From: an uncultured Alphaproteobacteria bacterium | GTDB taxonomy: Bacteria; Pseudomonadota; Alphaproteobacteria; RF32; CAG-239 | Direction of reading: 5' to 3' | NCBI GenBank assembly: GCA_947630965.1 | Contig: CANRJO010000002.1 | Coordinates: 5,038-69,037, forward strand | Length of the DNA stretch: 64,000 nt | In this document: piece by piece, positions 8,636-54,678 of the stretch | Layout of the letters: the number at the start of each line of letters is the position of its first letter | Numbering within the stretch: position 1 is the first letter of the stretch | Notes under the pieces: generated by a model | Told to the model about the DNA's origin: nothing | The model's database searches: none | The model's input: only the letters and a program-made list of their open reading frames with translations | Program-made: the position numbers and the translations under genes

Positions 8636-8675
8636 TCCTGGATCCTTCACTGCGTTCAGGATGACGGAGGGAGGG
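8636..8675. repeat. Short repeat element D (cctggatccttcactgcgttcaggatgacgg)
   Basis: Further copies at 25069-25105 and 25623-25660. Variants at 54483-54520 and 62546-62601. Confidence 0.7.
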
Positions 8676-20555: not shown

Positions 20556-21521
20556 TTGATGAAACCTTACCTTTACAGATCTATCGGTTTGCATATTGTG
20601 GTTTTTCTGCTGTTTGTGTTGGATTTGCCCTTTATGCACGCGCGCATGACCATTGGTCAGGCACCGATTATTGTTGATCTGAAAGATGTGAAACTCGCGG
20701 AAATGACCAACTTGCCGCCCAAAGCTGTGATTGGGGATGAAAATAAAAAAGCAACGGCGCCAAAGGAAAAAAAGCCTGAATTTACACACGAGGAAACCAA
20801 AAAGCCCGATACCCCGCCGCCGGCGCCTGAAATGAAAAAGGAAGATAAAGCCGACTATGTGAAAGAAGTAAAACCTGAGCCCGCGCCAACGCCTCAACCC
20901 AAGCCAAAGCCCAAACCTGAGCCGAAGCCCAAACCGAAGCCGCAGGAAAAACCAAAACCTCAAGCACCCACGAAGCCTAAGGAACAGCCCAAGCCTAAAG
21001 CTAAAGCGCAACCCAAGCAAGCTTCGAACAATACGGTTGCTAATCCGCTTAAGAGCTTAATGGATTCCGTTTCCGCCATGGAAAAAGAGATCGGCGAGGA
21101 GGCACCTGCCGTGATTAAAGAAGGCACACCTGTTGCTAATATGGGCATTGAGGGTGGTCGCGAGGGATCGTATTTTAGCGAGCTAACCATTTCTGAAACG
21201 GATGCCATTGCGGGGCGTTTAAGAGAATGTTGGAATTTGGATCCCGGCGCGCGTGGTATTGAAAATATGGTGGTTGAAATTCGCGCCACGCTGAACCGTG
21301 ACGGCTCTTTGAAAGATGTGAAGATTTTGGACACCGCGCGTTATAATGCCGATCCACATTTCCGCGCCATTGCCGAAAGCGCCCGCCGCGCCGTGTGGAG
21401 TTGCGCCAACAAAGACAATGTGAATATCTATAAGCTCTTCCCTGAAAAGTATGCCGATAAATACAGTTTGTGGCAAACGCTTTTGTTGCGCTTTAATCCG
21501 ATGGATGCCAGCATCCAATAA
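20556..21521 (+). CDS. tolA: TolA-like protein with a Pro/Lys-rich periodic linker
   Basis: N-terminal TM, then a long PKPKPEPKPKPKPQEKPKP-type linker and a C-terminal globular domain. It occupies the position of tolA after tolQR. Confidence 0.6.
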   Translation: MMKPYLYRSIGLHIVVFLLFVLDLPFMHARMTIGQAPIIVDLKDVKLAEMTNLPPKAVIGDENKKATAPKEKKPEFTHEETKKPDTPPPAPEMKKEDKADYVKEVKPEPAPTPQPKPKPKPEPKPKPKPQEKPKPQAPTKPKEQPKPKAKAQPKQASNNTVANPLKSLMDSVSAMEKEIGEEAPAVIKEGTPVANMGIEGGREGSYFSELTISETDAIAGRLRECWNLDPGARGIENMVVEIRATLNRDGSLKDVKILDTARYNADPHFRAIAESARRAVWSCANKDNVNIYKLFPEKYADKYSLWQTLLLRFNPMDASIQ

Positions 21522-22812: not shown

Positions 22813-24579
22813 ATGAAAGAATATCGGACTCATACCTGCGGCGAACTCCGCAACACCCATATCGGGCAAAAAGTTAAGCTCGCCGGCTGGATTCATCGCA
22901 AACGCAACCTGGGTAATTTGTGCTTTGTGGACTTGCGCGATCATTACGGCATAACACAATGCGTTGTGGATTCATCGTCCGATTTGTTTGAAAAAATTGA
23001 AAATACGCGCGTGGAAAGCGTGGTTGGCTTTGAGGGCGAAGTTGTGGCGCGTGAAAGCGTTAATAAAAATATGCCAACCGGCGATATTGAAATTAAGGTT
23101 TCAAGCATGGTGGTTTATTCCGAGGCCGATGTTTTGCCGATTCAGGTTTTTGGCGAAGATGACTCTCCTGAAGAATTGCGCTTGAAATATCGGTTTTTGG
23201 ATTTGCGCAAAGAGCGGATTCATAACAACATCAAACTCCGCTCGCAAGTAATTGCCGAAATGCGCCGCTTGATGACCGAGCAAGGCTTTACAGAATATCA
23301 AACCCCTATTTTGACCGCGTCATCGCCCGAGGGCGCGCGCGACTTTTTGGTGCCTTCGCGGATTAATCCGGGGCGGTTTTATGCCTTGCCCCAAGCGCCA
23401 CAACAGTTCAAGCAACTTTTAATGGTTTCGGGCTTTGATAAATATTTTCAAATTGCGCCGTGTTTCCGTGATGAAGATCCGCGCGCCGACCGTAGCCCTG
23501 GCGAATTTTATCAGCTTGATATGGAAATGTCTTTTGCCACGCAAGAAGATGTCTTTGGCGTGATTGAACATACCATGGGTGGCATTTTTAACAAATTCGC
23601 CAATGGTAAAACCGTTTCGCAAGCACCTTGGGTTCGCATTCCGTTTAGAGAGGCGATGCTTAAATATGGCTCTGATAAGCCTGACTTGCGCAACCCGCTC
23701 ATCATTCAAGACGCAACAGACTTTTTTCACAATTCCGGCTTTGGGCTTTATGATTCCAAAGTCCAAAATGATGAAAAAATTCGCGCTATTGTCGCACCTC
23801 AAGCCGGCGATAAGCCGCGCTCGTTCTTTGATAAAATGGACGGCTTTGCTAAAGAAGAAAATATGGGCGGCGTGGCGTATGTGGCATTTTCTGCCGCAGG
23901 CGCCAAAGGTATTGCCAAATTTTTGAGCGCCGAAAAGCTTGATGAACTTAAGCAAAAATTCGGCGTTGCCGAAGGCGATGCTATTCTTTTTGTTGGCGGA
24001 AAAGAAAAGGTTTTGAATAAATTTGCCGGCAAACTCCGCAATAAATTGGGCGAAGAGCTTGGCTTGTTTGATTATAACACATTCAAAATTTGCTGGATTG
24101 TTGATTTCCCGATGTATGAGGAAAATGAAGAAACCGGCAAGGTGGAATTTTCACATAATCCGTTTTCTATGCCCCAAGGCGGTATGGATGCTCTGCAAAA
24201 CAAAAATCCGCTTGATATTTTGGCTTATCAGTATGATATGGTTTGTAACGGCGTGGAGCTTGCCTCGGGCGCGGTGCGTAATCATAAGCCCGAAATTATG
24301 TATAAGGCGTTTGAAATTGCCGGTTATGATCACTCGGTTGTTGATTCTAAATTCGGCGGTATGATTAATGCTTTTAAATATGGCGCGCCACCGCACGCAG
24401 GAGCGGCGCCAGGGGTTGACCGTACAGTGATGTTGCTCCTTGATGAGCCAATTATTCGTGATGTGATTATCTTTCCGCTAAACGGCAAAGCGCAAGACTT
24501 GTTGATGCAGGCGCCGAATGTGGTGACGGAGGAGCAGCTTGCAGAACTCCATATTGCTATCGTAAAGAAAGACGTATAG
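22813..24579 (+). CDS. aspS: Aspartate--tRNA ligase
   Basis: Class II aaRS motifs (…[24 protein letters not shown]…, …GGMDAL…, …[14 protein letters not shown]). 588 aa. An AGAGGAA RBS lies upstream. Confidence 0.95.
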
Positions 24580-24595
24580 CTGGCAGGGGAATGCG

Positions 24596-24900
24596 TCTAA
24601 TGGACGATTCATCGTTCAAAAAGAGGATTTGAAATTCACGTACGCTTAAGGTCTTACTCGTAAGGGTTGCCAGAAATGGCAACCCTAACTCGTTTCGGTC
24701 ACTTGCTTTGTAAAAGTTGTATCGGTCGTTATCACTTCCTCACAACTTTAACAAAGCTACGCCGCTTGTGGTAAAAACAACCCGTCGGGGTTGTTTTTAT
24801 CCTCGCGCGCTAAAATTCCAAATCCTCTTTTCTCACTTCTACTCGCCTCATTATCCGCATTCCCGCGGACTATGAAAAAAAATAAGAATTAGTTTTTTAT
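24596..24900. repeat. Repeat element C (~300 bp); second copy at 43255-43560
   Basis: Long stretches near-identical to 43255-43560, for example ctaactcgtttcggtcacttgctttgtaaaa… and ttaacaaagctacgccgcttgtggtaaaaacaacccgt.ggggttgtttttatcctcgcg.gctaaaattccaaatcctcttttctcacttctactcgcctcattatccgc. Both copies lie directly after the stop of a +-strand gene (aspS, fabG). Confidence 0.8.
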
Positions 24901-25362
24901 CCTCATTCCCAAGGACTATGAAATAGCCTACTGACGTCATTCTGACGACCGTAGGGAGGAAGAATCCAGGTGGAAATAAATTCATCCTTATTGTCATGCT
25001 GAATTCGTTTCAGCATCTTCCTTATGAGATCCCGAAACAAGTTCGGGATGACATTTTGATTTCTTTTTTCCTGGATCCTTCACTGCGTTCAGGATGATGT
25101 TGTGTGCCTGTTGGCGTCTTGGAAGCAACTTCACGCGTGATGTCATAAAAAAATACTTGCAAAAATCAGATTTTTATTTAACATAAACCCTGCCGTCGTT
25201 GGGCGGTGGTGTTCACAAAACATCTTTACCAACTAAACTCCTTGTTAAGGGGAGTTTCCGATATAAGGCTTTTGCTCGAATAAGGAAAACTGACAGTTGG
25301 CAGTTTTGTGGCTCCCCACCTTTTTTATAAAGGTGGTTTTCTTTAACCTCAAGGAGCTGAAA

Positions 25363-25614
25363 ATGAAAATAAAAAACAAAGATCTGACACTTTACATCAA
25401 AAAAACAATGATGACGCTTTTTCGTGAAGAACGTATTAAAAGGGGCGAAACTCTGGAACAAACGGCGCGTAAAATCAACATTCCGCTTTATGAACTTGAT
25501 TTCTTGGAATGCGGAAGAGGCTGTATTTCTTGGAAAAAAATGATTGATTATTTAGAAATGTACAATAAAACGCTTAAAATTACTTTAGAAGACGACCCCG
25601 ATGAAAGTAGCTAA
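25363..25614 (+). CDS. Small HTH-like protein (putative XRE-type regulator), copy 1
   Basis: Start reassigned to the internal ATG at 25363, preceded by AAGGAG with 7-nt spacing. The segment LFREERIKRGETLEQTARKINIPLYELDFLECG resembles an XRE helix-turn-helix. Confidence 0.5.
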   Translation: MKIKNKDLTLYIKKTMMTLFREERIKRGETLEQTARKINIPLYELDFLECGRGCISWKKMIDYLEMYNKTLKITLEDDPDESS

Positions 25615-25915
25615 TTTGTTGCCCTGGATCCTTCACTGCGTTCAGGATGACGGACGGAGAGGGTTGCCACCATAGCAAGCTAACAATCGCGTGATGTCAT
25701 AAAAAAATACTTGCAAAAATCAGATTTTTATTTAACATAATCTCTGCCGTCGTTGGGCGGTGGTGTTCACAAAACACTTTTCTAGTAAACTCCTTAAATA
25801 AGGGGAGTTTCCGATATAAGGCTTTTGCTCGAATAAGGAAGACTGATTACTAGCAGTTTTGTGGCTCCCCACCTTTTTTATAAAGGTGGTTTTCTTTAAC
25901 CTCAAGGAGCTGAAA

Positions 25916-26176
25916 ATGAAATTAAAAAACAAAGATCTGACACTTTACATCAAAAAAACAATCATGATGCTTTTTCGTGAAGAACGCCTCAAAAGGGGCG
26001 AAACTCTGGAACAAACGGCACGCAAAATTGATATTCCGCTTTATGAACTTGATTTCTTGGAATGTGGGAAAAATTGCCTTTCTTGGCGCAAAATGATTGA
26101 TTATCTAGAGATGTACAATAAAACGCTTAAAATTACTTTAGAAGACGACCCCGATGAAAGTACCAACGACTTTTGA
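25916..26176 (+). CDS. Small HTH-like protein (putative XRE-type regulator), copy 2 (paralog of 25363-25614)
   Basis: Same RBS and start context at 25916. About 85% identical to copy 1. Followed by a hairpin terminator. Confidence 0.5.
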   Translation: MKLKNKDLTLYIKKTIMMLFREERLKRGETLEQTARKIDIPLYELDFLECGKNCLSWRKMIDYLEMYNKTLKITLEDDPDESTNDF

Positions 26177-26183
26177 ATAGAAA

Positions 26184-26217
26184 AGGCGTCTAGCAGACAC
26201 CTAGACGCCTTTTCTTC
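26184..26217 (+). terminator. Rho-independent terminator after the second HTH gene
   Basis: Hairpin aggcgtctag-cagacac-ctagacgcct followed by tttcttc. Confidence 0.6.
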
Positions 26218-26234: not shown

Positions 26235-26591
26235 TTATTCAACTGCAGGACTTCCATCAGCTTGATATACCGTTGTTATATCATCTTCTGTTGTTAGCAT
26301 GTAGCTGCCGTCAGCATATACATCGCAACACTTCAGGTTATCCGCAACCAACGAGCCATCCTCCCGATATAACGCCACGCGATCCGTTGCTTCCAACTTA
26401 TACCAACCGTTGGCATAAACATGTTTTTTAAAAAACTTGTCTATCAGAAGTGTTCCGTCAGGCCGATACATAGACCAACCATCCTCGGTTTCCAACATGT
26501 AGTAACCATTTTCAAAAATGTACTTTTGCTTAAATAACAAGTTGAAAAGCTCGCGCAAGTACCATCCGATTTGTTTTAAAATAGTTTTCAT
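26235..26591 (-). CDS. NGWY-repeat protein (three 33-aa repeats), member 1 of a tandem paralog array
   Basis: N-terminus MKTILKQIGWYLREL…. Repeats of the form C.V(Y/F).NGWY.L.T..G.ALYR.D.SLVAD.L. No signal peptide. Confidence 0.5.
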   Translation of the reverse strand: MKTILKQIGWYLRELFNLLFKQKYIFENGYYMLETEDGWSMYRPDGTLLIDKFFKKHVYANGWYKLEATDRVALYREDGSLVADNLKCCDVYADGSYMLTTEDDITTVYQADGSPAVE

Positions 26592-26662
26592 AATTATTAT
26601 TTTTTAAGGATTAAACAAAATAATTTTTTTCTAAAGAATATATTATTTTCTTTTTAGAAAGA

Positions 26663-26705
26663 AATCAACAAAAAACCTCCGAATACACCAAGTATTCAGA
26701 GGTTT
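26663..26705 (-). terminator. Rho-independent terminator downstream of the 251-aa NGWY-repeat gene
   Basis: Minus-strand sense: cctctgaatacttggtgtattcggagg followed by ttttttg. Confidence 0.6.
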
Positions 26706-26720
26706 TTGTTTTAAAAACGC

Positions 26721-27476
26721 TTACTCCATTATTAAAAATAAGGAACCATCATCCCGATAAAATGCCGTGCCGTCCGCCGTTGTGACTACAGACAAGCCTT
26801 TGCGCTGAATATGGCAATTTTGTATTTTATCAGCAATCAAGGCCTCATCAGCACCATACAAAGCTCTGTTCTCCGGCGATTCTAGAAGGTACCAACCGTT
26901 TTTGTAAACAAAGCAAAACAACAAATTATCAGCAACTAACGACTCATCTTTCCGATACAAAGCCATACCTTCTTTTGACTTTAATTGATACCAACCGTTC
27001 AAATAAACATCGCAATGCTTGAGTTTATCCGCAACCAAACTTCCGTCTGCGCGGTACAAAGTCGTGCCTTTCTTTGTTTGCAGAAAATACCACCCGTTAT
27101 GAAAAACATGGCAATCTTCCAAATGATCAGCAACCAAAGACTCATCAGCTTGATACAATGCAAAAGATTTATCTGTTTTCAGTTTATACCAACCGTTGTC
27201 AAAAACTTGGCACTTTTTCAGTTTATCGGCAACAAGCGAATCATCGGCGCGATATAATGCGGTTCCGTTTGCCGTTTCTAACGCATACCAACTGTTTGGA
27301 TAAACGTCACAATCTTTTAACTGATTGGCAACCAAGGAGCCGTTTTTGCGGTATAAAGCATTGCCACAAGCCGAGCGCAACATGTACCAACCGTTATCAA
27401 AAATGTACCTGTGTTTCAAACATACGTGGTAAAACTTACGTAAGCGCCACTGAATTTTTTTCAAAATAGTCTTCAT
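26721..27476 (-). CDS. NGWY-repeat protein (about seven 33-aa repeats), member 2
   Basis: MKTILKKIQWRLRKF… followed by about seven tandem 33-residue repeats, each with a single Cys, NGWY, ALYRADxSLVAD. Confidence 0.55.
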   Translation of the reverse strand: MKTILKKIQWRLRKFYHVCLKHRYIFDNGWYMLRSACGNALYRKNGSLVANQLKDCDVYPNSWYALETANGTALYRADDSLVADKLKKCQVFDNGWYKLKTDKSFALYQADESLVADHLEDCHVFHNGWYFLQTKKGTTLYRADGSLVADKLKHCDVYLNGWYQLKSKEGMALYRKDESLVADNLLFCFVYKNGWYLLESPENRALYGADEALIADKIQNCHIQRKGLSVVTTADGTAFYRDDGSLFLIME

Positions 27477-27616
27477 AATTATTATTTTTTAGGATTAAAC
27501 AAAATAATTTTTTTCTAAACAATATATTATCTTATTTTTAGAAAAAATCAATAAAAAAGCGTCTTCGAATAAAAAAACTCCGGATACCGATGTAACCGAA
27601 GTTTTAAGCTTTTGCG

Positions 27617-28177
27617 CTAATAATCTCTTTCTAACAACATGCCGTCAGATCGGTATAAAGCACGACCTTTTTTCGTTCTTACTTCATACTTTCCGTCAGC
27701 GTAAACATCGCACCACTTTAGTTTATTGGCAACAAGCGATTCATCAGCGCGGTATAATGCAATTCCGTTTGCCGTTTCTAATGCATACCAACCGTTGTCA
27801 TAAACATTGCACCAATTCAACTTATCAGCCACAAGCGATTCATCGGCGCGGTATAATGCGGCTCCGTTTGGCGTTCCCAACTCATACCAATTGTTGTCAA
27901 AAAGATTGCACCAGTTCAAATTATCAGCAACAAGCGAATCATCGGCGCGGTATAATGCGGTTCCATTTTTCGTTCCCAACTCATACCAATTGTTAATCCA
28001 AATATAGCAATAAGTCAATTTATCCGCAACCAAACTTCCGTCAGATCGGTATAAAGCCGTTCCGTTTGGCGTTCTTATAAAATACCACCCATTTTCAAAA
28101 ACATACCTGTCCTTTAAAAAATAGTCATGATAAAGCTTGCGCAAATGCTGCTTAATCTTTTTCAAAATAGTTTTCAT
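27617..28177 (-). CDS. NGWY-repeat protein (about five repeats), member 3
   Basis: Start reassigned to the conserved MKTILKKIKQHLRKL. The ORF track begins 8 codons earlier. The upstream leader is conserved with members 1 and 2. Confidence 0.5.
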   Translation of the reverse strand: MKTILKKIKQHLRKLYHDYFLKDRYVFENGWYFIRTPNGTALYRSDGSLVADKLTYCYIWINNWYELGTKNGTALYRADDSLVADNLNWCNLFDNNWYELGTPNGAALYRADESLVADKLNWCNVYDNGWYALETANGIALYRADESLVANKLKWCDVYADGKYEVRTKKGRALYRSDGMLLERDY

Positions 28178-28385
28178 AATTTTTATTTTTTTAATAATCA
28201 TACAAAATAATTTTCTTTCGGGGCGGATGTTAGCATCTTTTTTATGGAAATCAACAAAAAAATCCCAAGCAATACTAAAATGCAGCTCTTGGAATAAAGC
28301 TGTTACGTATTTATTGACTTATTTGGGCATATTTGGTAACATTTGAAAAAGCATTGTTCATATTGGCTTTATAAAATTATTCAGA

Positions 28386-28625
28386 ATGCCTAAATTTTAT
28401 TCTCCGGGAATGGTAACCGCCGAAATTCAATTTATGGTTAGTGTTTTATTTTATGCTTATCTCGCAAAACACCACATGGCAACAGGTTTGGAATATGTGC
28501 TTGGGGCATTGTTCATGATTATAGCATTTATGATGATGCAAAAGTCTTTAGTAAAAATCATTGGAATAAAGAGTTATTTTGAAGTTCCGAAAATGGTTTT
28601 AAAAAGAATAAAAAGCAAATCCTAA
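28386..28625 (+). CDS. Possible small membrane protein (79 aa)
   Basis: Two hydrophobic helices. No RBS evident and AT-rich surroundings, so it may be spurious. Confidence 0.2.
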   Translation: MPKFYSPGMVTAEIQFMVSVLFYAYLAKHHMATGLEYVLGALFMIIAFMMMQKSLVKIIGIKSYFEVPKMVLKRIKSKS

Positions 28626-28639
28626 CTGCTTGAGATTAT

Positions 28640-28675
28640 AAAAAAAACGGCTCTTGCGAGCCGTTTTTTGATTTT
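28640..28675. terminator. Bidirectional hairpin terminator at the 3' end of rpoA
   Basis: aaaaaaaacggctcttgcgagccgttttttgatttttt: a GC stem flanked by A-run and T-run on both sides. Confidence 0.65.
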
Positions 28676-29686
28676 TTAGAAGTGATCATCACACTTTTTG
28701 ATCAATTCTTCAATGTTCTCAGGCGGCCAACCCGGCGTATCCATACCAAGATGAATGCCCATCTTTGCCAAAACTTCCTTGATTTCGTTCAAGGACTTGC
28801 GCCCAAAGTTCGGGGTGCGCAACATTTCGGCTTCGGTCTTTTGAACCAAATCGCCAATATAAACGATATTGTCGTTCTTGAGGCAGTTTGCTGAACGCAC
28901 GGAAAGCTCCAATTCTTCCACTTTCTTTAACAGATTGCGGTTGAAAGGCAACTCTTCCTTAATGTCTTCCGCCTCAGCCTCAGGCTCATCAAAGTTAATA
29001 AACGGTTTGAGCTGGTCTTGCAAAATACGCGCCGCAAAAGCAACCGCATCTTCAGGCGTGACCACGCCATTTGTTTCAACAACCATGGTGAGCTTGTCAT
29101 AGTCCGTGATTTGACCGACACGCGTATTTTCCACCTTATAAGAAACCTTTTTAACAGGCGAATAAATGGCATCAACGGCAATCAAGCCAATCGGGGCATC
29201 CAAAGGCTTGTTTTGCGAAGCCGGAACATAACCCTTGCCGGTATCCACCGTTAATTCCATATTGATTTTGCCGCCGGCATCTAAGTTGCAGATGACATGA
29301 TCAGGGTTCATAATTTCCACATCATGACCTGTTTCAATCATGGCCGCTGTAACCGTGCAGGGACCTTCTGCCTTCAAGGTCATCATTTTTTGCCCCTCGC
29401 TATGAACAGCCACAGCCAAACCTTTGATGTTTAAGACAATATCCGTCACATCTTCACGAACGCCCGGAATGACCGAAAATTCGTGCAAAACGCCGTCAAT
29501 TTTGATGGCTGTGACAGCACCGCCTTGTAAAGACGACAAAAGAACGCGTCTTAAAGCATTACCTAAAGTTAAGCCGAAACCGCGTTCCAGGGGCTCTACC
29601 ACTATTTTAGACTTATGTCCGCCTTCGCCGGATGTAACTTCTAAATTAGTCGGTTTAATAAGTTCTTGCCAATTCTTTTGAATCAC
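28676..29686 (-). CDS. rpoA: DNA-directed RNA polymerase subunit alpha
   Basis: 336 aa. Conserved N-terminal domain (…[21 protein letters not shown]…) and alpha-CTD (…[22 protein letters not shown]…). Confidence 0.95.
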
Positions 29687-29776
29687 CGGTATACCCTCTT
29701 TCTAATTTTGTGCACAATTTGAAATCGTTAAACAGCGGAGATTGTAAAGCCAACCTCCGCTGACCAAAAAATAATT

Positions 29777-30172
29777 TTAGACGCGGCGGCGCTTTCTTAA
29801 GCGACAGCCGTTATGCGGAATAGGTGTAACATCCTTAATAGATGTAATTGTAAACCCAACCACCTGCAAAGCTCTGATTGCCGACTCGCGCCCTGAACCC
29901 GGTCCTTTAACTTCAACTTCCAAAGTTTTCATACCGTTTTCCTGCGCTTTTTTACCGGCTTCCTCTGCGGCAACCTGCGCGGCATAAGGGGTGGACTTAC
30001 GAGAGCCCTTGAAGCCCTGTGCGCCTGCGGTTGACCATGCAACAGTATTGCCCTGTGCATCAGTAATGGTTACGCGGGTGTTGTTAAATGTTGAATTCAC
30101 GTGGGCAACGCCGGAAGTGATATTCTTTTTTTCTTTTTTCTTAACACGTTGTGTTGTAACTGCTTTTGCCAT
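29777..30172 (-). CDS. rpsK: 30S ribosomal protein S11
   Basis: 131 aa with a typical uS11 sequence (…[18 protein letters not shown]…[15 protein letters not shown]…). Confidence 0.95.
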
Positions 30173-30184
30173 TGCTACCTCACC

Positions 30185-30553
30185 TTACTTCTTCTTATTG
30201 GCGACGGTTTTGCGTTTGCCTTTACGGGTACGCGCATTTTGTTTGGTGCTTTGACCGCGAACAGGCAAGCCCTTACGGTGACGCAAGCCGCGATAGCACC
30301 CCAAATCCATCAATCGTTTAATGTTAACGCCAACTTCACGGCGAAGTTCGCCTTCAACTAAATAGTCCTTATCAATAACCTCACGGATTTTGGCGACATC
30401 TTCTTCGCTTAAATCCTGCACGCGCGAATCGGCATTAACGCCAGATTTTGCGCAAATGTCTTGAGCAGTTTTTCTCCCAATGCCAAAGATGTAGGTCAGC
30501 GCGATCTCAATCTTCTTTGCGGTGGGAATGTTTACGCCAGCTATACGAGCCAA
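30185..30553 (-). CDS. rpsM: 30S ribosomal protein S13
   Basis: [26 protein letters not shown]… is the canonical uS13 N-terminus. 122 aa. Confidence 0.95.
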
Positions 30554-30693
30554 ATTGTCTCTCCATCAACAAAAAATTAAAACATTTTATTTAAAAAATT
30601 GATCACCATTTTTCAAAATTAAGCGGATTATATCCAAAAAAAAATAAGAGTCAAGCAAGATTTAACAAAAAATTTATTTTTTTTCAAAAAAGC

Positions 30694-31374
30694 TTACTTT
30701 GCTTCGCTCAATCCAAGGATTCGCGCTATTTTTTGCGCCGTGGCCTCAATGGTGCCTGTGCCGTCCACGCAACTTAAAAGCCCCTCTTTCTCAAAATAAG
30801 GGATTGTCGGATATGTGAGCATGCGATAATTGACCAACCTGTTTTGCACAGTGGCGCGATTATCGTCTTGTCGGCGGGAAAAGCTTGTGCCACCGCAAAC
30901 ATCGCACACGCCGTAAACCTTGGGCTTTAAGAACTTGTCATGATAGCCCTGCCCGCATTGCATGCAGGAATAGCGCCCTAAAATGCGCTCCATGATGATT
31001 TCATCGGGTACCTGAATTTCAATGACGCGATTAAGCTTGATTTTCTTTTCCGCCAACATTTTTTCCAAAACTTCCGCCTGAAAAAGTGTGCGCGGAAAGC
31101 CGTCTAAAATAAAGCCATTGGCGCAATCCTGCGCGTCAATGCGGTTTGAAACCATTTCAATGATCATTTCATCGGTGGCAAACTCGCCCCGATCAAGCGC
31201 GGCTTTCAAGCTTTTACCTAACGGCGTGTCTTTTTGGGCTTCGGCACGCAACATCTCGCCGGTGGAAAGGTGGCAAATGTGCGCACGTTCTTTTAAGATG
31301 CGCGCCTGCGTGCCTTTACCGCACCCTGGTGCACCCGTTAAAACAATATGAAGCCCGGCGCCCTTTTGATCCAT
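30694..31374 (-). CDS. adk: Adenylate kinase with a Cys4 zinc-binding LID
   Basis: P-loop GAPGCGKGTQA. LID with CMQCG…CDVCGG. It sits between secY and rpsM, as in alphaproteobacteria. Confidence 0.9.
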   Translation of the reverse strand: MDQKGAGLHIVLTGAPGCGKGTQARILKERAHICHLSTGEMLRAEAQKDTPLGKSLKAALDRGEFATDEMIIEMVSNRIDAQDCANGFILDGFPRTLFQAEVLEKMLAEKKIKLNRVIEIQVPDEIIMERILGRYSCMQCGQGYHDKFLKPKVYGVCDVCGGTSFSRRQDDNRATVQNRLVNYRMLTYPTIPYFEKEGLLSCVDGTGTIEATAQKIARILGLSEAK

Positions 31375-32753
31375 TACTTTCTTCTCTTGTTTTGCAGAAG
31401 TTGCGCCTTTTTAATAAGCCCTTCGTACTGATACGCAATCAGGTGCGATTGAACCTGCGTCACAAAATCCATGGTGACCTGCACCACGATCAAAAGCGTT
31501 GTACCACCTAAAACAAACGGTACAGAGAGTTTGGAAATCAGGACTTCAGGCACAATGCACAAAACCGTTAAATACGCCGCGCCCAAAACGGTTAAGCGCG
31601 TGATAACGTAATCAAGGTATTCCGCGGTGTTTTTGCCGGGACGAATGCCCGCGATGAAGCCGCCGTGCTTTTTCAAGTTATCCGCCGTTTCCTCGGGGTT
31701 AAATACCACAGCGGTGTAGAAAAACGAGAAAAACACAATCAAAAAGGCGTAAAGCGCCAAATAAACCGGTTGGCCGTGACCGAGCCATTGGCTCAGGCTT
31801 TGCGCCCAAGACGGACCGTTTTGCGCCGAGAGGTTGGCAACTGTTATTGGCAAAAGCAACAACGAGCTTGCAAAAATCGGCGGAATAACGCCTGTGGGGT
31901 TAATTTTGAGCGGCAAGTGCGATGTTTCCGCCGCGCTGATGCGCATGCCCATTTGACGTTTGGGATATTGGATGATGATTTTGCGTTGCGCGCGCTCCAC
32001 AAACACAATCACATAAATGAGCGCTAAAGCCATGACCAAAAGCAAAGCAATGGTTAATAACGACATGGAGCCGACACGCCCTAATTCAAACGTGCGCGCC
32101 AAGGCTGTCGGGATGTTGGCGATAATGCCGACCGTGATGATAAGCGACGAGCCGTTGCCCACACCGCGCGAGGTGATTTGATCGCCCAGCCAAACCACAA
32201 ACATGGTGCCACCGACCAGCGAAACAATGGTTGTAAACTTAAACACAAAGCTCGGGATAACCACCGCCGAAGCGCCGGCGCCGCTTGTCATGCTTTCAAG
32301 ACCAACGGCAATGCCGTAGCCTTGAATAATGGTGATGAACACTGTTAAAATTTTGGTATAATGCGTGACCTTGCGATGCCCCGCCTCGCCTTCTTTCTTC
32401 AAAGCTTGCAAGGACGGGATAATCGATTGCCCGAGTTGGATGATGATGGAGGCGGAAATGTAAGGGAAGATGTTTAAGGCAAAAATGGTCATACGTTCCA
32501 AAGCACCACCGGAAAACATATTAAACATGCCCAAAATGCCGCCGTTGTGCTGTGAAAAAACCTCAGAGAGGATGTTCGGATCAATGCCCGGCAACGGAAT
32601 AAACGTGCCAAGGCGAAACACAACCAACGCCATGATGGTAAACCATAATCTTTTTTTCAGTTCGTCAGCTTTGCTAAAGGCGGACATATCCAAGTTTGCC
32701 GCCATTTTTTCTGCCAATGATGCCATTTTCTTTTCCTTTAAAATTACACACAT
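31374..32753 (-). CDS. secY: Protein translocase subunit SecY
   Basis: 10-TM protein with conserved SecY motifs (…GIMPYISASIIIQL…, …GGTSLLI…). The true start is probably a downstream Met (MASLAEK…). Confidence 0.95.
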   Translation of the reverse strand: MCVILKEKKMASLAEKMAANLDMSAFSKADELKKRLWFTIMALVVFRLGTFIPLPGIDPNILSEVFSQHNGGILGMFNMFSGGALERMTIFALNIFPYISASIIIQLGQSIIPSLQALKKEGEAGHRKVTHYTKILTVFITIIQGYGIAVGLESMTSGAGASAVVIPSFVFKFTTIVSLVGGTMFVVWLGDQITSRGVGNGSSLIITVGIIANIPTALARTFELGRVGSMSLLTIALLLVMALALIYVIVFVERAQRKIIIQYPKRQMGMRISAAETSHLPLKINPTGVIPPIFASSLLLLPITVANLSAQNGPSWAQSLSQWLGHGQPVYLALYAFLIVFFSFFYTAVVFNPEETADNLKKHGGFIAGIRPGKNTAEYLDYVITRLTVLGAAYLTVLCIVPEVLISKLSVPFVLGGTTLLIVVQVTMDFVTQVQSHLIAYQYEGLIKKAQLLQNKRRK

Positions 32754-32848
32754 AAACAGGGCGCTTACAGCCCTTTTGGCATAGTTAATACACCATTTAA
32801 AACAAATTGCAACAAAATAATGCGTTTTGTACAGAAAGAGGCGGAATC

Positions 32849-34054
32849 TTACTTGCTCGTCCAGTTTGGTGAGGAAGGAATATCCGTCAACGTTGTTGTC
32901 GCAGATGCTGTCGGGTGGTATGAAACACCTTTATAAACCAATGTGTCCGTCAAGTTAGAGGCGGTGATTTCTATAGTTTCCGGCCAAAGATCCGAACCAC
33001 CCTCTAACTCCAGAAAAACGGGTTTTTGCGGGGTGCCTGACAATACCAAATTATACTTATATTGCTTTTCATTTGTCATGCGCTCCGTAATATTGAAAGT
33101 AACCCGGCTTCCTTCCTCAATAACATATTCTCCCTTATGATCATAAGCAAAAAGTTTTTCTGCCGTTATGTTCGCCGTTGTTCCCTTAAATCTGAAAGGA
33201 GCTCCGTTAGAAAAAGTGTTTGCTTTCGTAATATTTATTTGCGCATTCTCAAAAGTTAACTCTGAGCCATGAAAAACACTTCCGTTAGGATTTGTGAAAG
33301 AGGCTGTCAAATCGGTGCCCGCAAATTGAACTTTTGAGGATGTGAAAACATTACAATGTATAGAGTTAATATCAAGGTCAATTTTATCTTTTAAAACATA
33401 AGTTGCCTTATTGAACGCCACATTTATTTGATTTTCTGTCACCTTAGAATCATAAATTAAAGAAACATTTTCTAAAGAAATCTCGTTTTCTGTATTAGAA
33501 CTGTTAAGGTAAACATTGTTATTGTGAGTTATGCTGTCTTGATGATGCAGATTAATGTTTTTGAAAGCGGTGTTGTTTTCTGCCGTAATGACTGTTTTAT
33601 TTGCTTGATTCGCGGAAGTTGATAACGTATGTCCGCCACCGTCAATCGTAGTGTTGGCGGCAAGCGTAAAGCCTTGGTTTGTTGGAATTGTGATGTCGCT
33701 TTTCATCGTGATGAGCTTGCATTTTCCTGAACCGGCGAGGTATTTAAGTTCGTCGTAGTTGGTCGCGATACAAGCTTTTTGACAAAGTGTTAAATTTTCA
33801 TTGCCCCTACATTTAATGATGTCAGCGCACCACGATGTTTTGTCCGATTCTGTAAAGCCAAGCTTGGTGCAATCGTAATTGACGCATCTTTTATAGGACT
33901 TATCAAAAGGGCAATACATATACCCGTTATCCGCACAGTTCGGGTCATTATCTTTGGAATAACCCAAGCTCGCGCAATCTGGCACTTTCTCACAATCCAT
34001 GGCATTTGCCACATTCGCAAACATCAAAGCCAACAAAAACAAAATATAGCGCAT
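32849..34054 (-). CDS. Secreted cysteine-rich protein with an N-terminal Cys module and a beta-helix-like Asn/Thr-rich C-terminal region (paralog of 62623-63846)
   Basis: Start reassigned to MRYILFLLALMFANVANA (signal peptide). An 8-Cys module DCEKVPDCASLGYS…NCADNGYMYCPFD…C..YDC. Then TIDGGGHTL and N-rich repeats. Confidence 0.5.
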   Translation of the reverse strand: MRYILFLLALMFANVANAMDCEKVPDCASLGYSKDNDPNCADNGYMYCPFDKSYKRCVNYDCTKLGFTESDKTSWCADIIKCRGNENLTLCQKACIATNYDELKYLAGSGKCKLITMKSDITIPTNQGFTLAANTTIDGGGHTLSTSANQANKTVITAENNTAFKNINLHHQDSITHNNNVYLNSSNTENEISLENVSLIYDSKVTENQINVAFNKATYVLKDKIDLDINSIHCNVFTSSKVQFAGTDLTASFTNPNGSVFHGSELTFENAQINITKANTFSNGAPFRFKGTTANITAEKLFAYDHKGEYVIEEGSRVTFNITERMTNEKQYKYNLVLSGTPQKPVFLELEGGSDLWPETIEITASNLTDTLVYKGVSYHPTASATTTLTDIPSSPNWTSK

Positions 34055-34083
34055 TTTCTTCTCCTTATTCGAATCGATCAAAA

Positions 34084-34596: not shown

Positions 34597-37317
34597 ATGC
34601 GTAAAGTAGCGGCAATTATTTTTTTGGGCCTCATCAGCTTAAGCACTTCTGTGTATGGCGCATGTTTTAACGAGTGCAAAGCCGTGCCGGAATGTGCCAA
34701 AATGGGGTATAAATTACAAGGGGATATTTTCTGCCCTGATGGTTACATTACGTGTCCGTTCGATTCCCAATATATTTGGTGTAAAGAATATACCTGTAAA
34801 GATGGACGTTATAGTGATACGGAAGAGCTAACGGGCGAGAAAGGTTACGTTTGCGATGAGGTAGATTATCATCATCGGAAGTGTTATCATTGCCATTGTG
34901 ATCCTGACCCCGAAGAGTGTCAATGGAGTAATCTCAACAAAGGCGTTGGCGAGTTAGGCGATAGATGTTGTGACGGGCACTATGCCAGTTGTAGAAATTT
35001 ATGCCAAGACAAGGTCAGCGTGCCGGCTCACGCGCATGGTAATAAAGAGTCTTGCACGGGGTGCAATATTACAAAAGATATTATCACAAGTTGGTCATGT
35101 GATGACTGGTATGATCAAATGGGCGAAGCCTGTTATGCCCGCCAATGCCCCGATGGTTATACCATAACAGATGCTCGTATTGAGGATTGTGGACGCACAA
35201 AAGATCAAGGTTGGACATGGGAGAGCAAAGGTCAAAGCGGCGAGCAGATTTGCGGCAAATGCACCGCAAAGAGTTGTTCAGGCGATTACAGCACAGATTA
35301 CCCAGGCGTGGATAGTTGTGGCGATAGCGGCTCCAAGGGGTGGACTTGGAACCAAAGCGGTTGGAGTGGCGATGACGCCTGCGGCAAATGTACGGCAAAA
35401 GAGTGTTTACCAGGTTTTAGCACACAATATTCAAGTATAGCGAGTTGTGGCACAAGTGGCAACAAGGGTTGGACATGGGAGCAATCAGATCAATATGCGG
35501 GTAATGACATTTGCGGGAAATGCACCAAGAAAGAATGTGAAGAAGGTGACACTGACCCCGATATCAAGAGTTGCAAGTTTGAAAGCGATTATTTAGGAAG
35601 CAAGACTGAAAACGGATATTATAGCGAAGATAAAAAGTGTTACACTTGCCATTGTGCGGCGAATGATACGAACTGTCATTGGAGTGAGGGAAACAAAGGT
35701 CAGGGCAGATTGGAAACAAAATGTTGCAATGGTAAATATGCTACCTGCACATCAAATTGCGTTAAAGTTGAAGTGCCGGATCATGGTCAATGTGCTGATC
35801 GTTGCACAGGCTGTGAAACGGAAGTTTGTTCAGCATATAGTTGCGATAAAGGTTATCAAAAGGATAATTCACAGACAAAATGCGAAGTGGCGCCTTGTGC
35901 CAATGGTACGGCAACGGAAGCGAGCAAATGCGGGAATGGAACCGGTGCTGCAAATGGTTGGGAAACGAGCACTGACACAGGTCATTTAAGTGGTGAGAAG
36001 AAGTGTTATCAATGTACCATGAAAGATTGTCCGACAGGTGAGAGCACCGATTATCAAGATGTCAGCAAGTGTGGCACAGGTGCTTCTAAGGGAGCCGGGT
36101 GGACGAATAAGGGCACAACAAATTATCATGGCGACACAAGATGTTACAGTTGCAGTAAGAAAGCATGCACGGGTGGTTACGATACAAAATATAAAGATGT
36201 CAACAGCTGCGGCAAAGCGGGCGACAGTGGTTGGGACTGGAGCACAAACGGTTGGAGCGGTGATGAAGTGTGTGGTAAATGCACGCCTAAAACATGCCCG
36301 AATGGATACAGCAGCGAAAAGAAGAGTATTGATGATTGCGGCACCACAAAAGATAAAGGTTGGACATTTGAAAAATCTTCCACCAATTCCGGAGAGAATG
36401 TTTGCGGTAAGTGTGATGCTCGCCAGTGCCCAACTGATGAGAACACAAATGCTTCAGCATCAGATTGTGGCACAAGCGGTGAAAACGGTTGGACAAAGAA
36501 AACAACGGGGCATTTTGCGGGAGATAATGCTTGCTATAAGTGCGAGAAAAAGGTATGTGAAGGAGGTTCTAGCACCAAGTACCAAAGCATAAGTGACTGC
36601 TCGGCGGGGTGTGCAACTTACCACTCTGAGGGTTATTCAGGTGATCAAAAGTGTGGCGTTTGCTATTATACCGTTGATGAGCAGGTTCCTGAGAATGCAA
36701 CATGTACGTACACAACCAAATGCGAGAGAGGCACAGCCTGTACGAAATGGGATTGTAACGAGGGCTATACAAAATCAGCAGATGGCAAGAAATGTGATGT
36801 TGCCAAATGTCCGGAGGGATACGACGTACAGAAACAATCAGGCCCTGATTGCGGTAATGAAAGTGGTTGGCGTGTGGAAACTCTGGGCAAGAGCGGCAAT
36901 AAAAATTGCGGTAAATGCATTTGTGAGTCTAGTTGCACCTGGGACAATAACAATAAAGGCGAAAAAGGATCCTTAACTAATAAATGTTGCAATGGTAAAT
37001 ATGCCAATTGCACCAATAACTGCCCGAATGTTCAGGTGCCTCCGAACGCTTATGGAACAAACCCTTGCACGGCTTGCAATCAAGCGGTCAGATACGGCGG
37101 TTGGGAATGTAATGAAGGTTTCTTGAAATTAGACGGCGCATGCGTTGAGCAATGCAAAGACCCGCAAGTGGACTATGAAACTTGTTGGAATGGAAGTTTC
37201 GCCTCAGGCGGCGGTTTGTCTGACTGCGATAAGCAAGGCTATAAACACTCCAAAGGGGATTGCACTAACTTTATTGCTTGTCCGACGAATGCTAATAAAA
37301 TCCGTTGCTTACATTAG
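34597..37317 (+). CDS. Large secreted cysteine-rich modular repeat protein (906 aa)
   Basis: Signal peptide MRKVAAIIFLGLISLSTSVYGA. An N-terminal Cys module related to the 32849 and 37758 genes. About ten ~40-aa repeats of the form DCG.SG.KGWTWE..G.SG…CGKCT.K.C. Three ~50-aa modules of the form C.C..…W…NKG.G.L…CCNGKYA.C..NC..V.VP. GGA RBS upstream. Confidence 0.55.
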   Translation: MRKVAAIIFLGLISLSTSVYGACFNECKAVPECAKMGYKLQGDIFCPDGYITCPFDSQYIWCKEYTCKDGRYSDTEELTGEKGYVCDEVDYHHRKCYHCHCDPDPEECQWSNLNKGVGELGDRCCDGHYASCRNLCQDKVSVPAHAHGNKESCTGCNITKDIITSWSCDDWYDQMGEACYARQCPDGYTITDARIEDCGRTKDQGWTWESKGQSGEQICGKCTAKSCSGDYSTDYPGVDSCGDSGSKGWTWNQSGWSGDDACGKCTAKECLPGFSTQYSSIASCGTSGNKGWTWEQSDQYAGNDICGKCTKKECEEGDTDPDIKSCKFESDYLGSKTENGYYSEDKKCYTCHCAANDTNCHWSEGNKGQGRLETKCCNGKYATCTSNCVKVEVPDHGQCADRCTGCETEVCSAYSCDKGYQKDNSQTKCEVAPCANGTATEASKCGNGTGAANGWETSTDTGHLSGEKKCYQCTMKDCPTGESTDYQDVSKCGTGASKGAGWTNKGTTNYHGDTRCYSCSKKACTGGYDTKYKDVNSCGKAGDSGWDWSTNGWSGDEVCGKCTPKTCPNGYSSEKKSIDDCGTTKDKGWTFEKSSTNSGENVCGKCDARQCPTDENTNASASDCGTSGENGWTKKTTGHFAGDNACYKCEKKVCEGGSSTKYQSISDCSAGCATYHSEGYSGDQKCGVCYYTVDEQVPENATCTYTTKCERGTACTKWDCNEGYTKSADGKKCDVAKCPEGYDVQKQSGPDCGNESGWRVETLGKSGNKNCGKCICESSCTWDNNNKGEKGSLTNKCCNGKYANCTNNCPNVQVPPNAYGTNPCTACNQAVRYGGWECNEGFLKLDGACVEQCKDPQVDYETCWNGSFASGGGLSDCDKQGYKHSKGDCTNFIACPTNANKIRCLH

Positions 37318-54430: not shown

Positions 54431-54678
54431 CAAGGGGAAAATTTAGGGAATGTGCATGATGAGTAATTAGCTATGTTTTTTGTCCTGGATCTTTCACTTC
54501 GTTCAAGATGACGTACCGAGGCAGCCGCTCCTTTCTTATCCAAGTTTCGACAAGGTGGAGAACCGTTTAGATAGAGTGAAAAATAAAGCGGTAAAAATTC
54601 TAGCGTACTAAAAAAGGTACATGAATTTTGCGAGACCCGAAAAAACGGCTTTAGATGCGCCGCTATACGTCTTTCCAC

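Follow-up and report, generated by a model that had tools for sequence, protein, structure and literature searches.

Tandem NGWY-repeat genes on self-contained cassettes next to rpoA in an uncultured alphaproteobacterium

Proteins made of short beta-stranded units are known in several forms. The WG_beta_rep (PF14903) and KWG (PF07656) families use units of ~33-37 residues with the pattern hydrophobic-x-(N/E)-G-aromatic...G-x-hydrophobic...D-x-G-x-hydrophobic, four-stranded units of 33 residues fall within the size range of tectonin blades, and the sheets of the G-box are solvent-exposed on both faces. At the level of gene organization, small paralogues that lie in tandem and carry no signal peptide are a known pattern of immunity-gene arrays. 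Here we describe an array of three tandem genes, g1 to g3, that can be compared with each of these. It lies in a 64,000-nucleotide stretch of contig CANRJO010000002.1 (positions 5,038 to 69,037 of the forward strand; assembly GCA_947630965.1) from an uncultured alphaproteobacterium of the RF32 CAG-239 lineage; this whole stretch is called the window below, and coordinates are counted from its first letter. The three genes belong to an undescribed and very rare beta-repeat family that is carried on self-contained tandem cassettes. Our overall reading, to which we give about an even chance of being right, is that the products work without enzymatic activity and independently of Sec, as multivalent binding or scaffold proteins.

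Three coding genes built from a 33-residue unit

An earlier note on this DNA, made from the letters alone, had described three minus-strand genes of 118, 251 and 186 codons with a common leader, placed between aspS (22813-24579) and rpoA (28676-29686). Both the open reading frames (ORFs) and the position were confirmed exactly. By ORF prediction and unit parsing, g1 (26235..26591, minus strand) encodes a leader and three units in 118 residues, and g2 (26721..27476, minus strand) a leader and seven units in 251 residues. The 186-residue product of g3 (27617..28177, minus strand) has a leader and five units; its start was chosen by homology with g1 and g2, since the ORF finder extends the frame to 28201 and the MKTILKK start common to the paralogues lies at 28177. 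A length of 186 residues is also what gene callers report for g3 on other contigs, and the exact g1 protein is found on 12 public contigs. All three leaders begin MKTILK(K/Q)I.

The repeat units are extremely regular. Script-based parsing gave a register of strictly 33 residues with no insertions or deletions, and the copy numbers, estimated earlier as 3, ~7 and ~5, are exactly 3, 7 and 5 in g1, g2 and g3. The last unit of each protein is shorter by 3-4 residues. At the DNA level, a 99-nt period was detected by Tandem Repeats Finder and by a repeat search. The unit consensus is x-V-(F/Y)-x-N-G-W-Y-x-L-x-T-x-x-G-x-A-L-Y-R-A-D-(G/E)-S-L-V-A-D-x-L-x-x-C, in which one face of the strands is conserved at Y8, L10, A17, Y19, L25 and A27 and the other at W7, L18, V26 and L30. 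Variable positions (1, 4, 9, 11, 13, 14, 16, 31 and 32) are found mostly at two places, the beta2-beta3 hairpin and the junction between units. The C-terminal unit differs from the rest: Trp7 is present in 23 of 26 non-terminal units vs 1 of 11 terminal ones (p=8e-6), and there Trp7 nearly always, and Asn5 often, is swapped for polar residues. Each unit also has one conserved Cys, at position 33 (in 11 of 12 full units), where the final strand of a unit kinks into the opening strand of its successor.

Genes g1 to g3 are real protein-coding genes under purifying selection, as seen in both their units and their strain variants. The proportion of non-synonymous differences (pN) was below that of synonymous ones (pS) in 66/66 pairwise comparisons of full units (means pN 0.31, pS 0.70), and coding differences among ten same-species metagenome contigs of 99.3-100% identity came to 9 synonymous vs 3 non-synonymous. 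Relatives in other organisms are found at the protein level, with 27-42% identity and diverged DNA, and there is no frameshift, internal stop or pseudogenisation in any of the three genes, as had been claimed for frameshifts. The region might instead be a non-coding 99-bp DNA satellite that is open in one frame by chance, and it is true that the tandem repeat is detectable in DNA and that further ORFs run across the repeats in other frames. This explanation is effectively refuted by the 66 of 66 unit pairs with pN below pS and the mostly synonymous strain changes, by protein homologues that persist at 27-42% identity despite diverged DNA, by the conserved start context and terminators, and by folds that are predicted confidently.

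The earlier note could not name a family for the repeats, and this was borne out by all profile and sequence searches. Scans of g1 to g3 against Pfam, NCBIfam and PADLOC gave no family match and no catalytic domain, and neither the proteins nor the unit profile matched any PDB sequence. A Pfam scan of 26 family members found no recurrent family and no propeller or tectonin model; a match to IRF-3 (25 bits, below the 27-bit cut-off) and others like it were set aside as repeat-inflated noise. Relatives are few. A word-indexed search of 5.8 billion clusters returned three, and an exhaustive HMMER search of 1.84 billion representative proteins with the unit profile gave 50 matches at E ≤ 1e-3, of which ~25 are true members, 62-515 residues long with 2 to >10 units. 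The other HMMER matches (MucBP, Big_9/cadherin, PPC and SH3_3) reflect a short motif matched many times and include no coherent homologue. Scans of 185,579 GTDB species representatives, JGI metagenomes and IMG/VR with the unit alignment found nothing real; two short matches from these scans (L004 and L027) were spurious. A literature search with accessions and the motif string yielded nothing useful.

Mobile-element records gave a similar picture. A tblastn search with g2 found nothing in 50,697 phage and 72,556 plasmid records; against the phage set, g3 had a single match, at E=0.5, and the relative P0030 had none. A 64-position PHROGs profile without assigned function, phrog_23963, is matched by residues 95-124 of g3 at E=1.2e-12 and, weakly, by g2 at E=5e-4. 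As a family link this profile was rejected, since g1 and ten other members do not match it and no homologue occurs in the phage records; we treat the match as a motif-level coincidence.

Predicted fold of the repeat proteins

Structure prediction for the 251-residue protein, which the earlier note had proposed as a check, was confident and showed a helix followed by four strands per unit. The AlphaFold2 (AF2) model of g2 (m583106d85eaa) has a predicted local distance difference test score (pLDDT) of 89 and a predicted template modelling score (pTM) of 0.76, and that of g3 (m8d29c45ed04a) has pLDDT 93 and pTM 0.79. In both models an N-terminal helix at about residues 2-20 (pLDDT 65-79) precedes four short strands per unit, as assigned by DSSP, and a single residue separates the fourth strand of each unit from the first of the unit that follows.

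The codons of the 23-residue leader that holds this helix lie on the minus strand at 27408..27476 in g2, whose model is helical over residues 4-20, and equivalent leaders are encoded at 26523-26591 in g1 and 28106-28177 in g3. The leader helices are cationic and amphipathic, having a hydrophobic moment of 0.49-0.57, a net charge of +3 to +7 and a mean hydrophobicity of -0.2 to 0.1. Judged from their sequences, the leaders hold no hydrophobic core, twin-arginine motif or lipobox, which supports the previous claim that the proteins lack a signal peptide. Several relatives have no leader and open directly with MK(T/Q)xF(K/S)NGWY; the leader is therefore an optional module. It could cap the N-terminus, or tether the protein to a membrane or polyanion.

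Foldseek searches of the PDB matched the designed protein Scone, WD40 domains of IFT-A, NHL and tectonin-2 propellers, and the CPAP G-box. The E-values were good, yet template modelling (TM) scores were 0.2-0.45 with root-mean-square deviations (rmsd) of 7-16 Å; the best TMq was 0.43-0.50, and the best match in BFVD had a TMq of 0.53. Because the fit is good locally but poor globally, the unit appears blade-like and no known structure matches the whole. The likeness to a propeller or solenoid that had been suggested from the letters thus holds in part: the all-beta character and the local resemblance to a blade stand, but a closed propeller is disfavoured by the low TM scores and the pattern of the cap. 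The hydrophobic and aromatic residues conserved on both sheet faces suggest that successive sheets pack face to face, and the loss of Trp7 from the terminal unit points to a cap at a free end, not to a blade packing back on blade 1.

These same models bear on the possibility that the proteins are closed, small-blade, tectonin-like lectin propellers, with five- and seven-unit monomers closed on themselves, two- and three-unit proteins closed by oligomerisation, and Trp/Tyr-rich NGWY sites that bind carbohydrate. Units of 33 residues with four strands lie within the range of tectonin blade sizes and contain many aromatic residues, a compact body is suggested by the pTM of 0.76-0.79, and the Foldseek matches are overwhelmingly propellers, including tectonin-2 (5fsc/5fsb) at E ~4e-5. 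However, TM to any propeller is no higher than 0.45 with rmsd of 7-11 Å, the terminal unit has lost the Trp and Asn that are otherwise conserved, none of the 26 members matched a propeller or tectonin model in Pfam, and an extracellular lectin would need an export signal, of which there is none. The repeat register also starts and stops at unit boundaries, so that no offset between repeat and blade hints at "velcro" closure. We consider such a lectin unlikely. From the pattern of conserved residues we favour an open-ended, capped stack of sheets; a closed propeller and a single-layer sheet both fit that pattern less well.

Cassettes, neighbourhood and evolutionary tempo

Each of the three genes is preceded by a similar set of short elements, all on the minus strand. 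Consensus matching identified promoter-like boxes at 26640..26668 for g1 (TTGATT-N17-TAATAT), at 27524..27551 for g2 (TTGATT-N16-TAATAT) and at 28227..28254 for g3 (TTGATT-N16-TAACAT, with a TG two bases upstream as in the extended -10 type), and these boxes are conserved in seven cassettes from three sources. Downstream of them lies a 13-mer, AAAATTATTTTGT, at 26615..26627 in g1 (~+6 to +18 from the putative transcription start), 27499..27511 in g2 and 28202..28214 in g3. It is invariant in 7/7 cassettes, and its exact copies within the window occur at the three cassettes only. A copy with one mismatch, AAAATTATTTTTT, is found between rpsK and rpoA (29766-29778, minus strand) and is probably due to chance, as 6 of 100 shuffles give at least four matches.

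The 5' leader before each ORF is A/U-rich and ends ...AAAAAATAATAATT-ATG. No purine-rich Shine-Dalgarno (SD) sequence is found within 25 nt of the ATG of the NGWY genes, unlike the 14 other window genes checked and unlike the adjacent helix-turn-helix (HTH)-like ORFs, which carry an AAGGAG SD. The leaders of the relatives P0001 and P0027 are likewise A-rich and without an SD. RNA structure in the NGWY leaders did not go beyond shuffled controls (z -0.1 to +1.9) and Rfam had no match in the array region; an RNA thermometer or riboswitch was rejected on these grounds, with z about 0 or above.

Conserved 5' regions with an inverted repeat had also been reported for all three genes. The conservation holds, but the inverted repeat TTTCTAAA-N17-TTTAGAAA, which brackets the -10 box, is present only in g1 (26628..26660, minus strand) and g2 (27512..27544, minus strand). 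Neither the region upstream of g3 nor the related cassettes on the short contigs L015 and L016 have it, and it was rejected as a conserved operator for this reason.

Each gene is followed by a predicted terminator on the minus strand: a hairpin with U7 after g3 (27571..27598; RNA fold -16.4 kcal/mol), a hairpin with a U-run after g2 (26670..26707; -23.4 kcal/mol), and a hairpin after g1 that also serves the convergent HTH-like ORF (26181..26210; -25.2 kcal/mol). A bidirectional terminator after rpoA (28642..28669) divides the array from the ribosomal/rpoA operon. Contigs L015 and L016, from one ENA study, hold further tandem NGWY genes, and their cassettes repeat the terminator hairpin seen after g2, the -35/-10-like boxes, the 13-mer and ATTATG. 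These common elements indicate that the duplicating unit consists of terminator, promoter, leader and ORF. Each NGWY gene would then be an autonomous cassette, with promoter activity and transcription start inferred from the boxes.

The array comes after secY-adk-rpsM-rpsK-rpoA, at the usual place of rplQ, and its neighbours are rpoA, aspS, HTH-like orphans and housekeeping genes, with no toxin or defence gene. Relatives are solitary or tandem and also lie among housekeeping genes: L001 by rpsE-rpmD-rplO, L028 by rplL, L031 by holC, L017-L019 by priA and ATP synthase genes, L021 by ssb and uvrA, and L002 and L003 by ABC transporter and SpoU/MurQ-like genes. No partner gene is common to the relatives' loci examined. 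These neighbourhoods matter for the idea that the array is an orphan, antitoxin-like immunity array against polymorphic toxins, with one toxin variant per paralogue. The three genes are indeed small tandem paralogues without a signal peptide, and repeat scaffolds make good binders; but no toxin gene, Rhs, contact-dependent inhibition or type VI secretion marker, or PADLOC match was seen in the window or in the relatives' loci, and each gene has its own promoter and terminator in place of an operon. We regard an immunity array as very unlikely.

Further features of this part of the window were noted. The ribosomal super-operon is fragmented (28642-34081): rpoA, with its bidirectional terminator, is not followed by rplQ, and secY is preceded by a 410-residue ORF without a Pfam match in place of rplO. 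That ORF (32849-34081, minus strand) and two others of 906 and 321 residues (34597-37317 and 20556-21521, both plus strand) have no Pfam match at 1e-5, and the genome is therefore rich in orphan genes. RpoA is much more similar to the alpha subunit of PDB 7ye1, a Caulobacter RNA polymerase (528 bits), than to other solved alpha subunits (328 bits or less), in keeping with a probable alphaproteobacterial origin. A 79-residue ORF between rpoA and g3 (28386-28625, plus strand) is a truncated form of a 204-residue gene with a weak HXXEE match, which is found in other strains (L007) with 373 extra bp at ~28353.

Downstream of g1, a 553-bp segment is duplicated in tandem (25070-25622 and 25623-26176, 91-96% identity). 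The 28-mer CCTGGATCCTTCACTGCGTTCAGGATGA opens each copy and is followed by the hairpin CCACCTTTTTTATAAAGGTGG, the AAGGAG SD and an HTH-like ORF. These ORFs, of 83 or 86 residues with weak HTH character and starts at 25363 and 25916 (the 83-residue one spans 25363-25614), are convergent with g1. Their product is itself an orphan restricted to the species group, seen in only 5 of the 5.8 billion clusters searched, each with 87% identity or more. The 28-mer resembles a miniature inverted-repeat transposable element and occurs at 8637-8664, 25070-25097, 25623-25650 and 54484-54511 (three exact copies and one with 3 mismatches), where none would be expected by chance. More short palindromic repeats lie downstream of aspS at 24580-25250, such as the 27-mers at 24851 and 24897.

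The earlier note had taken the varying numbers of repeats and genes as a sign of rapid evolution. Within the species this was not seen: the 186/251/118 array is identical in layout on the ten metagenome contigs, a sample picked by exact g1 identity and so biased towards close strains. Samples with the array are found in ENA analyses ERZ27249xxx (runs ERR106637xx). Between species, unit number, gene number and the presence of the leader do vary, and unit number also varies between paralogues. Most units diverged anciently (pS ~0.7), and g3 units 2 and 3 alone form a recent pair (pS 0.2). One strain contig, L009, carries a cluster of seven substitutions at g3 nt 399-459 (~27719-27779) that changes g3 unit 4 to the protein sequence of g2 unit 2, and this cluster includes I139T and E146D, two of the three non-synonymous strain changes. 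From its sequence, we read it as a gene-conversion tract between paralogues.

This gene conversion counts in favour of a reading in which the proteins are effectors or host-interaction factors of a host-associated bacterium, exported by a Sec-independent route such as a type I or type IV secretion system, from an array that diversifies by duplication and gene conversion. Other findings point the same way. The family occurs extremely rarely and in a restricted lineage, there are many orphans among the neighbouring ORFs, and the relatives P0001 and P0032 come from an assembly of at least 460,000 contigs that may represent a host genome with its symbiont. Composition is shifted mildly towards A+T, with a GC content of 40% in the NGWY genes vs 44-50% and a codon adaptation index of 0.66-0.73 vs 0.71-0.78. 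On the other side, selection is purifying and not diversifying, the array is invariant among the sampled strains, and the window showed neither genes of a secretion system nor C-terminal signals that could be recognised, and we think a role as effectors quite unlikely.

Proposed mechanism and comparison with known systems

In the binding or scaffold reading that we prefer, the locus would consist of three tandem copies of an autonomous cassette, each with a sigma-70-type promoter, the 13-mer, an A/U-rich leader without an SD, the ORF and an intrinsic terminator. The product would be soluble and carry neither a Sec nor a Tat signal, and in it an optional cationic amphipathic helix would be followed by n 33-residue units. 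Each unit would fold into four short antiparallel strands with hairpin turns at NG, xxG and DG, and successive four-stranded sheets would be stacked face to face, a geometry suggested by the residue pattern. The last unit, as a cap without the inter-unit Trp, would leave an open-ended "stack of blades", with a length and a valency that depend on the number of units, from 2 to >10 across the family. The variable positions may form an exposed interaction surface, and the proteins would act inside the cell, or after release by a non-Sec route.

Several points weigh against this reading. A binding or scaffold function is the default inference for non-catalytic repeat proteins. The alignments behind the AF2 models are shallow, at 6-10 sequences. 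The reading does not account for the conserved Cys33 of the units, which may serve in buried packing, at a metal site or in a redox role. Lastly, the promoters and transcription starts are consensus-based, and a generic promoter scan was not enriched over shuffles.

A bolder version can be stated, which we hold as speculative and on balance rather unlikely. The 33-residue unit would represent a new architecture, a capped open stack of blades or "propeller unrolled into a solenoid" to which no solved structure is analogous, carried on a self-contained duplicating cassette in a narrow alphaproteobacterial group and lodging at the ends of ribosomal and housekeeping operons (after rpoA; by rplO, rplL and holC), with unit number tuning a cytoplasmic scaffold. 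If the description given here is right, the proteins form an undescribed beta-repeat family and may have a fold arrangement without a solved analogue. Their regularity, with a 33-residue register, natural two- to seven-unit versions and an identifiable cap, would be attractive for the structural biology and design of repeat proteins. They would also give a little-known alphaproteobacterial lineage an accessory family that is orphan and lineage-restricted, and would illustrate cleanly how entire transcription units duplicate in tandem while the paralogues undergo gene conversion. At present the practical importance is limited.

Among known systems, the cassettes recall phage "morons", the promoter-ORF-terminator insertions, in that an NGWY gene is also a self-contained unit that duplicates whole; they differ from morons in that the array has no prophage context and no significant phage or plasmid match. 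At the level of the motif, bacterial SH3 domains (SH3_3, PF08239) have the hairpin motif NGWY-x-(I/L)-x-T-x-x-G in common with the NGWY unit, and for this reason the repeat profile weakly picks up the multi-SH3b proteins P0035, P0069 and P0070. This likeness extends over ~14 residues, however, with 1 of 26 members matched (E=0.048), and the unit length and strand count are unlike those of SH3_3. WG_beta_rep (PF14903) and KWG (PF07656) differ from the NGWY proteins at the profile level, with no match at E ≤ 1 in the 26 members among the top 25 of 27 families.

Closer likenesses are found in predicted structure. As in the blades of WD40, NHL and tectonin-2 propellers (the last from Laccaria bicolor, PDB 5fsc), the NGWY unit is predicted to be a four-stranded antiparallel meander, and the propeller blades, which are the top Foldseek matches, also have conserved residues on both sheet faces. 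They differ in that the NGWY proteins give no sequence-profile match, have from 2 to >10 units and so are not bound to ring sizes, and end in a C-terminal unit that acts as a cap without the core Trp. Against the six-bladed tectonin-2 structures (5fsc/5fsb), the NGWY model has a TMq of 0.39 and an rmsd of 8.4 Å, and the NGWY proteins have no known sugar-binding motif. The CPAP/TCP10 G-box (PDB 4bxr and 4bxp) is likewise an uninterrupted run of short, hairpin-linked strands, and it gave the best Foldseek E-value for the five-unit model, yet with a TM of 0.20-0.23. Unlike the G-box, the NGWY repeat is hydrophobic on both faces and has a kink every four strands, which implies stacked sheets.

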